Shown: positions 3,511-4,169, counted from the stretch's first letter. The stretch: 11,073 nt of DNA from a virus (IMGVR_UViG_2675903650_000002:1-11073), one strand, 5' to 3'. The notes: generated by a model from the sequence alone, not told the origin. A program made the numbers and translations.

Positions 3511-3777
3511 ATGGTTTGTCAGGTTCAGCCTGATGGTTCTTATAACTGTGGTCTTTTTTCTTCGTCATCTTCACCACAGCCATCTGGTAACGGTAACAGT
3601 AATTTTTCTGAAAATTCTGTACAAAATAATAAGCCTATATCTGTTGTTTGTGCGGATTTTTCTGATGTGCCTTCGGTTAATCCCGGGGCTTTTAGCGTAG
3701 GAGCATTATTGCCATTATTTTTCTTTTTTATTGGCATGTGTGTTTCTGCAATCATTAAAACAGTTAAAGGAATTTGA
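3511..3777 (+). CDS. Hypothetical membrane protein; possible minor coat or morphogenesis protein
   Basis: ORF track starts at TTG 3502; ATG at 3511 with RBS gaggg (3497-3501) is more likely. Ser/Asn-rich N-region and C-terminal transmembrane segment [19 protein letters not shown]. Stop abuts the major coat start. Confidence 0.45.
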
Positions 3778-3778
3778 T

Positions 3779-4036
3779 ATGTTTTATAAATTTAAATCTT
3801 CTTGTGGTAGTTTTAAATCCAAAGTGTTAGCTGTTCCTGTATTGTTTGCATCCGGTCAGGTTTTTGCGGCTGGCACTACTACAACTACGGGGTCTGTTGA
3901 TTTTACGCCGTTAACTACGTCGATTAACTTTACTTCTGTTGTCTCTGTAATTCTTTCTATCGGTGCTGCTGCTGTTACCGTTTATCTTGCAGTTATCGGG
4001 GTTCGTGCTGTCTGGCGTCAAATTAAATCTATCTGA
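3779..4036 (+). CDS. Major coat protein (pVIII-like) precursor
   Basis: 85 aa from ATG 3779 (RBS aagga upstream); the ORF track's 3731 start is an upstream extension. Signal peptide ends VFA|AG, giving a mature peptide of about 55 aa with a hydrophobic core ([22 protein letters not shown]) and basic C-terminus ([10 protein letters not shown]), the classic inovirus major coat architecture. Followed by a strong terminator. Confidence 0.7.
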
Positions 4037-4043
4037 TTTTATG

Positions 4044-4069
4044 AAGGGGCAATGTTTTGCCCCTTTTTT
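4044..4069 (+). terminator. Rho-independent terminator after the major coat gene
   Basis: Perfect stem ggggcaa / ttgcccc (4046-4052 and 4057-4063), loop tgtt, then TTTTTT (4064-4069). Same position as the terminator after gene VIII in Ff phages. Confidence 0.8.
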
Positions 4070-4079
4070 ATGGTGATAT

Positions 4080-4169
4080 ATGTCTCAGTCTATTTTTGAT
4101 GTCGTGATTTTTATTTTCGGTGCATTATGCGGTTTTTCTGCTGTGCTCGGATTTATGTTCAGTCGCTGA
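4080..4169 (+). CDS. Small hydrophobic peptide (29 aa), possible pVII/pIX-like minor coat protein
   Basis: ATG at 4080; translation MSQSIFDVVIFIFGALCGFSAVLGFMFSR is a single transmembrane-like helix. Absent from the ORF track (too short); weak RBS. Speculative. Confidence 0.25.
   Translation: MSQSIFDVVIFIFGALCGFSAVLGFMFSR

Follow-up and report, generated by a model that had tools for sequence, protein, structure and literature searches.

In phages of the Ff group, pVII and pIX are present in about five copies each at the leading tip of the virion, where their C-termini contact the packaging-signal hairpin, and both are needed to initiate assembly. Recent preprints claim that most integrative inoviruses lack gVII and gIX (Yeh et al.), and a pair of small membrane proteins encoded beside the coat gene of such a phage therefore bears on the current question of which proteins occupy the leading end. 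A conserved pair of this kind does exist in the window, which is the whole stretch of 11,073 nucleotides of viral DNA analysed here (IMGVR_UViG_2675903650_000002:1-11073), and in its relatives. It consists of an 88-aa protein (ORF88) and a 29-aa peptide (ORF29), for which a sequence-only reading of the window had proposed the missing pVII/pIX-type roles. The question that the locus raises is how far the conservation, the anatomy and the position of the two genes bear out that proposal.

Organization of the locus

Pfam and PHROG searches identified the window as an integrated inovirus, the context markers being a Phage_GPA Rep, a DUF2523 (pVI-like) protein, Zot and a Secretin. The gene order is Rep, a 140-aa putative ssDNA-binding protein, ORF88, the major coat gene, a terminator, ORF29, and then the pIII-, pVI-, pI/Zot- and pIV-like genes (Table 1). 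The ssDNA-binding role of the 140-aa protein was assigned by position, its G5P match being sub-threshold, and is regarded as putative. When ORF88 and ORF29 are set aside, every Ff role except those of pVII and pIX has a candidate gene. The gene between the two small ORFs is identified as a coat gene by its PHROG match, in agreement with the earlier claim that they flank it. The start of the pIII-like gene is uncertain, with TTG 4191, ATG 4197 and ATG 4206 as candidates.

The terminator-like hairpin that separates the coat gene from ORF29 (4043-4066, followed by the T run) has a value of -17.9 kcal/mol with z=-3.6, and ORF29 starts 9 nt after it. The hairpin is kept in the relatives, and its stem shows compensatory changes between lineages. 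An Rfam search of the window returned no family, and no phage record was matched when the entire prophage was used as a megablast query.

Within the pIII-like gene, a long Gly/Thr repeat (GTGTTT… units) at about 5190-5400 constitutes the linker. Across the relatives, the length of the pIII-like protein ranges from 504 to 575 aa with a varying Gly/Thr linker; L020 instead has a collagen-like Gly-X-Y linker.

Table 1. Features of the window and positions of the IS110-family transposase in related loci (the last row is numbered by each locus)
Feature	Position	Strand	Remarks
IS110-family (DEDD) transposase	1-954		
Phage_GPA-type replication protein	1083-3059		
140-aa protein, gV position	3070-3492	+	PF17426 (G5P) E=0.0064, below cut-off; phrog_30648, a PHROG with no function assigned
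ORF88, 88-aa single-pass membrane protein (predicted)	3511-3777	+	ATG 3511, TGA 3775-3777
Recombination joint of replication and structural modules	3597-3639	+	inside ORF88, codons ~29-43
Major coat gene, 85-aa precursor with signal peptide	3779-4036	+	phrog_2186 'virion structural protein', E=9e-17
Rho-independent terminator-like hairpin, directly 3' of coat gene	4043-4071	+	10-bp stem, loop of 4, T run
Shine-Dalgarno-like GGTGA 5' of ORF29	4072-4076	+	
ORF29, 29-aa hydrophobic peptide	4080-4169	+	ATG 4080, TGA 4167-4169
pIII-like adsorption/termination protein, signal peptide and Gly/Thr repeat linker	4206-5705	+	phrog_7187/3942, C-terminal domain
pVI-like, DUF2523	5726-6013	+	
pI/Zot	6031-7143	+	
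pIV secretin	7146-8417	+	
IS110-family transposase in relatives	L001 975-1928; L002 6025-6987; L013 1378-2340; L014 196-1146; L019 1980-2951		

Conservation and annotation in relatives

Relatives were drawn from prophages in complete E. coli genomes, from IMG/VR contigs and from contigs encoding ORF88 homologues, and the loci are cited here by number (L001 and so on). Scans of genome contigs, and a first scan of viral contigs with the coat protein, yielded no confirmed relative. Both ORF88 and ORF29 were found to be intact at every related locus that carries this structural module, with the exception of L009, in which several genes are frameshifted, Rep and coat included. Both are real genes, and purifying selection acts on each of them, as detailed below. 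The sequence-only reading had named loss of the ORFs, or frameshifts in close relatives, as the outcome that would speak against it; since the two ORFs are retained in working form and their substitutions point to purifying selection, that objection does not arise.

It had also been claimed that such ORFs are missed by gene callers. This proved correct for ORF29, which is nearly always omitted: neither the RefSeq/PGAP annotation of L001 and L003 nor the GenBank records of L012, L021, L023 and L024 contain it, and gene calling passed it over in L013 and L014. The claim stood only in part for the ORF88 homologue, for which L001 has an annotation and L002 and L003 have none. These genes are likewise not mentioned in the UPΦ paper, which deals with filamentous phages of the Enterobacterales. 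Searches of phage records with tblastn at E<=10 gave no match for ORF88 or for ORF29, the hydrophobic queries being probably too short and masked.

ORF88 and the joint between modules

The coordinates that had been given for ORF88 are exact, and so is the placement of a transmembrane segment at its C-terminal end. The longest ORF starts at TTG 3502; because a GAGGG motif lies at 3496-3500, ATG 3511 is preferred as the start. The most hydrophobic 19-residue stretch comprises residues 64-82 (mean KD 2.37) and is followed by KTVKGI. AlphaFold2, run with a 17-sequence alignment, gave a single helix at 58-86 (pLDDT 82-91), disorder at 17-44 and a hairpin of low confidence at 2-14. Residues 1-16 make up an N-terminal segment with a Cys pair (Cys at 3 and 13), residues ~17-44 an S/N/G/Q-rich disordered linker, and residues 44-88 a conserved core, which consists of SVVCADFSD…AFSVG, the TM helix and the KTVKGI tail. 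The stop codon lies 1 nt ahead of the coat ATG. A lipoprotein anchored through the conserved Cys was considered and rejected, no signal peptide or lipobox context being seen before this residue when the sequence was read by eye.

The ORF88-core family can be described as the C-terminal ~45 aa of proteins encoded directly 5' of coat, with SVVC[AV]DF, ~9 residues, [AS]FxxG, the TM helix and a basic tail; in the alignment, C, F, G, P, F, G and S are invariant. The N-termini of the homologues vary in sequence as well as in length, from 10 to about 80 aa. The family is small, with 16 homologues in a set of 5.8 billion proteins and 8 clusters among 1.84 billion representatives. Omega for the core is 0.15-0.5 within the clade; between window-type and L003-type sequences it is ~1, a value that is uninformative given the near-saturated substitutions.

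Two breakpoints delimit a change of affinity within the gene, in that the 97% match to L002-type genomes ends at window position 3596 and the 83% match to L001-type genomes begins at 3640. In E. coli 2017.06.05CC, the replication module of the window recurs at 97% identity together with an ORF88-type protein whose first ~30 residues are those of ORF88, but its C-terminal helix is different and travels with a different coat/pIII/pVI/pI module. These comparisons place the module joint inside ORF88, within the segment listed in Table 1, with the helix co-segregating with coat. That the helix is exchanged along with the coat/pIII/pVI/pI module and the N-terminus is not, as in the comparison of the window with L002, is expected if the helix packs against the coat protein. 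One ORF88-core/coat module was found joined to at least three replication modules (Phage_GPA with the 140-aa protein; Rep_trans with a 112-115-aa protein; Phage_CRI with Phage_DNA_bind and a 197-aa ORF), the N-terminus of ORF88 being specific to each combination. The 80-aa protein of the sister module in E. coli 2017.06.05CC is locally similar to M13 pVII (VxDF…LGIIAG, pairwise E=0.003).

A terminator scan also picked up a hairpin with a 9-bp stem at window positions 3516-3536, just after the start codon of ORF88. The segment around it shows 95-97% conservation with the replication module, and the hairpin could act as a signal in translation or at the level of the DNA.

ORF29, a conserved peptide behind the coat terminator

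The coordinates of ORF29 were likewise exact, and its hydrophobic character was confirmed. The peptide, MSQSIFDVVIFIFGALCGFSAVLGFMFSR, has a GRAVY of 1.53 and a hydrophobic stretch at residues 8-26, with D7, G14, C17, G18, G24 and a terminal R29 among its residues. Its sole PHROG hit is phrog_29151 at E=0.079. A G-rich Shine-Dalgarno-like motif lies ~3-7 nt 5' of the start in all 11 lineages (11/11; spacing read by eye from printed 16-mers). Within the E. coli group, at least 8 protein variants of 25 or 29 aa occur, and G14, C17, G18, V22, G24 and F25 are invariant across six of them. The NG86 omega is 0.06-0.33 in 13 of the 14 computable pairs, the one other, a cross-clade pair, giving 0.51. 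When five separate lineage pairs are summed, the differences at codon positions 1/2/3 number 29/18/54 (chi-square p=4e-5).

By our own reading, ORF29 and pIII share a frame in the window. Read-through of the stop codon, which would fuse the two, was rejected, the frame being different in L001 (2-nt indel) and a 56-aa ORF lying between the two genes in L003-type loci. This additional ORF (L003 6239-6409, also in L004-L010) is conserved, encodes a soluble protein of 56-60 aa and is not found in the window.

Comparison with pVII and pIX of the Ff phages

In f1, pVII (33 aa) and pIX (32 aa) are signal-less single helices present in five copies each, with positive C-termini toward the DNA and exposed N-termini that tolerate fusions. 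Structures 8B3O and 8B3P show the leading-tip minor coat proteins of Ff (cited in the Yeh et al. 2024 preprint). The criteria by which pVII has been recognised are a length of ~30-35 aa, the absence of a signal peptide, one TM helix (~7-29), an acidic N-terminus and a C-terminal Arg (Yeh et al. 2023), and these features are also visible in the cryo-EM of f1. ORF29 shows these features, having 29 aa, a hydrophobic stretch at 8-26, Asp7 and a terminal Arg29. ORF88 agrees with pVII in helix and charge but not in size, being 2.5 times longer than pVII and pIX, with a long N-terminal extension. Neither protein has a signal peptide, and both have the charge pattern of the Ff coat proteins, acidic on the N-side and basic at the C-end.

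As regards position, it had been stated that both ORFs occupy sites at which inoviruses encode tip proteins. For ORF88 this is correct by the Ff standard, as its neighbours are the gV-position gene on one side and gVIII, to which it is tightly coupled, on the other, in the manner of gVII/gIX. ORF29 departs from that standard, since it follows gVIII and the terminator, whereas gVII and gIX of Ff precede gVIII; its site is that of ORF29 in the Vibrio phage VGJφ.

Sequence searches gave little to connect the two pairs. No Pfam family was found for ORF88 or ORF29 at E<=0.1, the positive control M13 pVII being assigned to PF19978 (Inovirus_G7P) at 1.3e-21, and no pVII/pIX-type PHROG profile was found for either ORF, ORF88 being without any PHROG match. 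Alignments of pVII and of pIX were built from M13, IKe and If1 and compared with the two families by hhalign. Against pVII, the probability was 0.9% for the ORF88 core and 0.5% for ORF29. Against pIX, it was 0.9% for ORF29 and 31% for the ORF88 core (P=5e-4, 18 columns, pIX side SFVLGWCLRSGITYFTRL), which is not significant. Direct sequence comparison with pVII and pIX likewise gave no significant similarity. Since there is no Pfam or PHROG match and the profile probability is at best 31%, homology to pVII and pIX is unproven. What the two pairs share is their architecture, the layout of charges, the surroundings of the genes and the logic of the gene count.

Counterparts in other inoviruses

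The closest parallel is found in VGJφ (Fibrovirus, NC_004736), in which ORF81 and ORF29 are annotated as 'putative minor capsid protein' and match phrog_2924 and phrog_25361 at 4.6e-38 and 2.7e-22, the latter being designated 'minor head protein'. The gene order of the two phages is identical, namely ssb, an ~80-aa TM protein, major coat, a 29-aa hydrophobic peptide, pIII, pVI and pI; VGJφ differs in having no pIV secretin gene. Both small peptides are exactly 29 aa long with Asp7 and a terminal Arg, and in both ~80-aa proteins an N-terminal Cys pair is followed by AFSxG where the helix begins and then by a basic tail. The similarity in sequence is not significant (hhalign 24% for ORF29 and 0.2% for ORF88), and the window proteins do not belong to phrog_2924 or phrog_25361. 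The 'minor capsid' annotation in VGJφ is itself positional, and a literature search for experiments on VGJφ ORF29 and ORF81 found none.

The neighbourhood is syntenic with that of Pf1 too. There, the uncharacterised orf30 and orf83 recur as a hydrophobic pair of ~30 aa and ~75-85 aa beside coat, both of them placed before the coat gene. Pseudomonas phage 36-2 has a 75-aa protein annotated 'tail virion protein gp7-like' and an unannotated 24-aa post-coat ORF. The ~80-aa proteins of Pf1 and 36-2 have the Cys pair, AFxxGF and the basic tail in common with ORF88, a similarity at the level of motifs only.

For the wider search, the ORF29-like family was delimited as peptides of 24-29 aa with the pattern [FWY]-[DEQ]-x5-[FYWVLI]-G-x2-C…G, encoded between the coat terminator and pIII, and was aligned from 12 sequences of distinct lineages. 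The terminal Arg is present in 6 of these 12 and absent from the 24-25-aa variants except that of L020. An HMM of the family was searched against ~6,000 stop-to-stop segments from all collected loci, and in genomes outside the training set it matched only ORFs of the coat-to-pIII gap (L021, L022, L024). The genomes concerned are those of two saliva-derived inoviruses (E=2.4e-5 and 0.002) and of phage 36-2 (E=0.002); the peptide of a further saliva inovirus (L012), first spotted by eye, is clearly homologous to the family. All but one of the peptides from the saliva inoviruses and phage 36-2 are unannotated. The expanded HMM gave no match to the gap ORFs of VGJφ, VALG_phi8, CTXφ or Pf1, which are therefore positional analogues only.

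Some of these gap ORFs are themselves absent from the records. In VALG_phi8 (L023), an unannotated hydrophobic ORF at 3300-3392 is a clear homologue of VGJφ ORF29. An unannotated 25-aa hydrophobic ORF with a GTG start lies in the coat-to-pIII gap of CTXφ (L026 3200-3277), and another of 25 aa, also with GTG, in the annotated 'intergenic region' of Pf1 (L025 1073-1150); the only support for these two is their existence.

An N-terminal segment of ~35 residues with a Cys pair is found in the pre-coat proteins of the window, L002, L020, three saliva-derived inoviruses, VGJφ, VALG_phi8, 36-2 and Pf1, and in most of these proteins the helix moreover opens with an AFxxGF-like motif. The Cys pair was seen in pre-coat membrane proteins of ~75-126 aa from at least eight inovirus lineages (L002, L012, L017 and L020-L025, in addition to the window); the shortest pre-coat proteins (57-64 aa) lack it. 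Its recurrence suggests that the N-terminus of the pre-coat proteins may be disulfide-bonded and extracytoplasmic.

Proposed role and alternative explanations

It is proposed that ORF88 and ORF29 are most likely the functional equivalents of the pVII/pIX pair of Ff, that is, leading-tip proteins, a reading to which we give a little more than an even chance. The candidacy is plausible and draws on position and shape. In its favour, the Ff-like gene set is otherwise complete, so that two roles and two genes remain; both are conserved proteins with a single helix and Ff-like charges; the pairing of a ~30-aa with a ~80-aa protein recurs in Pf1; and VGJφ has the identical order. What found no support is any closer kinship, as neither protein matches the Pfam G7P family or resembles the pVII and pIX profiles significantly, and ORF29 is off the Ff position. 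It also counts against the proposal that ORF29, being downstream of the coat terminator and adjoining pIII, could equally belong to the pIII/pVI end, and that the plus strands of inoviruses are T-rich, so that small hydrophobic ORFs arise easily.

If the two are tip proteins, both would be inserted without a signal peptide into the inner membrane, in an orientation that leaves the basic C-terminus in the cytoplasm and the N-terminus outside it, as are Ff capsid proteins before assembly. The leading ('round') tip would consist of a few copies of each and would nucleate assembly on the packaging signal of the ssDNA; this would take place at the pI/Zot-pIV export machine, with the basic C-ends facing the DNA. 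ORF29 would be the short, pVII-like peptide and ORF88 its longer partner, with a helix weakly like that of pIX and a variable Cys-pair N-terminal extension projecting from the tip. ORF88 would be made from an abundant message of the gV-to-gVIII type, with translational coupling to coat, the adjacency of the two genes being an observation. ORF29 lies behind the coat terminator together with pIII and is therefore probably made in small amounts; it would be translated, along with pIII, from transcripts that pass the coat terminator or start after it.

An appreciable though clearly smaller chance is given to the view that one or both proteins work at the assembly site as membrane-bound factors, whether morphogenetic or accessory, and stay outside the virion, for example as a partner of pI/Zot, as a protein that brings ssDNA to the membrane or, for ORF29, as a helper at the pIII/pVI end. 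The location of ORF29 with pIII behind the terminator fits such a role, PSB15 of Xanthomonas phages provides a precedent as an essential membrane-associated assembly protein absent from virions, and it has been argued in the preprints that integrative inoviruses may have a leading end different from that of Ff. However, size, a single helix with a basic tail and the co-variation of the helix with the coat module are what a capsid-type protein would have, and the genome holds no other candidates for the tip roles. Neither ORF88 nor the 140-aa protein was retained as a homologue of PSB15 itself, which is located elsewhere in φLf-UK; a SGFF stretch in the 140-aa protein is loosely like the WAGFXF motif by eye.

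A role directed at the host, as a toxin, a superinfection-exclusion factor or a membrane-permeabilising moron with no part in morphogenesis, is improbable. ORF29 matches type I toxins such as TisB in size, and Pf4 encodes PftP4, a 33-aa membrane peptide that is toxic if overexpressed; PftP4, however, is encoded downstream of zot, outside the coat region, whereas ORF88 and ORF29 keep their places in the structural operon in inoviruses of Escherichia, of the oral cavity and of Pseudomonas, with a parallel in Vibrio phages. Accessory genes are moreover normally variable in presence, while these two occur in every relative. Least probable of all, and very unlikely in our view, is that ORF88 alone is a real protein gene and ORF29 a chance T-rich ORF or a uORF that tunes the expression of pIII. 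The peptide is indeed very short, lies in a T-rich spacer (AT skew -0.39 to -0.41 at 3751-4500) and is in frame with pIII in the window, but this frame is not kept in L001 or, given the intervening ORF, in L003. The low omega values, the third-position excess, the invariant G14, C17, G18 and G24 and the Shine-Dalgarno-like motif of the 11 lineages all argue for a translated gene, and the HMM finds the peptide in distant genomes at this position only.

Beyond the E. coli group, the reading of the two as tip proteins may be extended to a general leading-tip pair of Zot-type, mostly integrative inoviruses (Escherichia, oral, Pseudomonas, Vibrio), made up of a post-coat peptide of 24-30 aa and a pre-coat Cys-pair/TM protein of ~60-130 aa. 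This extension is tentative, and we consider it somewhat doubtful. In such a pair, the variable N-terminal extension of the longer protein would be displayed at the tip, and the module joint would lie inside its coding sequence. If it were true, the round tip could be put to a direct test in non-Ff inoviruses, and the virus family would gain a core gene that is systematically unannotated.

That candidate minor coat proteins of small size and hydrophobic character are encoded next to coat has long been known, and VGJφ carries the same positional annotation. What is added here is two sequence families absent from Pfam and PHROGs, a post-coat micro-protein conserved from Escherichia to Pseudomonas inoviruses and almost never annotated, and the module joint inside ORF88. 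The result is a well-supported annotation rather than a discovery, and it leaves the general picture of inovirus biology unchanged. The pair nevertheless provides concrete candidates for the tip roles in E. coli prophages that are easily manipulated, and improves the annotation of inovirus prophages.

Additional observations

A TraX-like F-pilin acetylase gene was seen directly 3' of Zot in a related E. coli inovirus prophage (L002 13523-14284). An IS110-family transposase gene lies directly 5' of the replication gene in the window and in all full-length relatives of the E. coli group, whichever replication module they carry (Table 1). Instead of belonging to an unrelated insertion sequence, it may be the enzyme with which the phage itself integrates.
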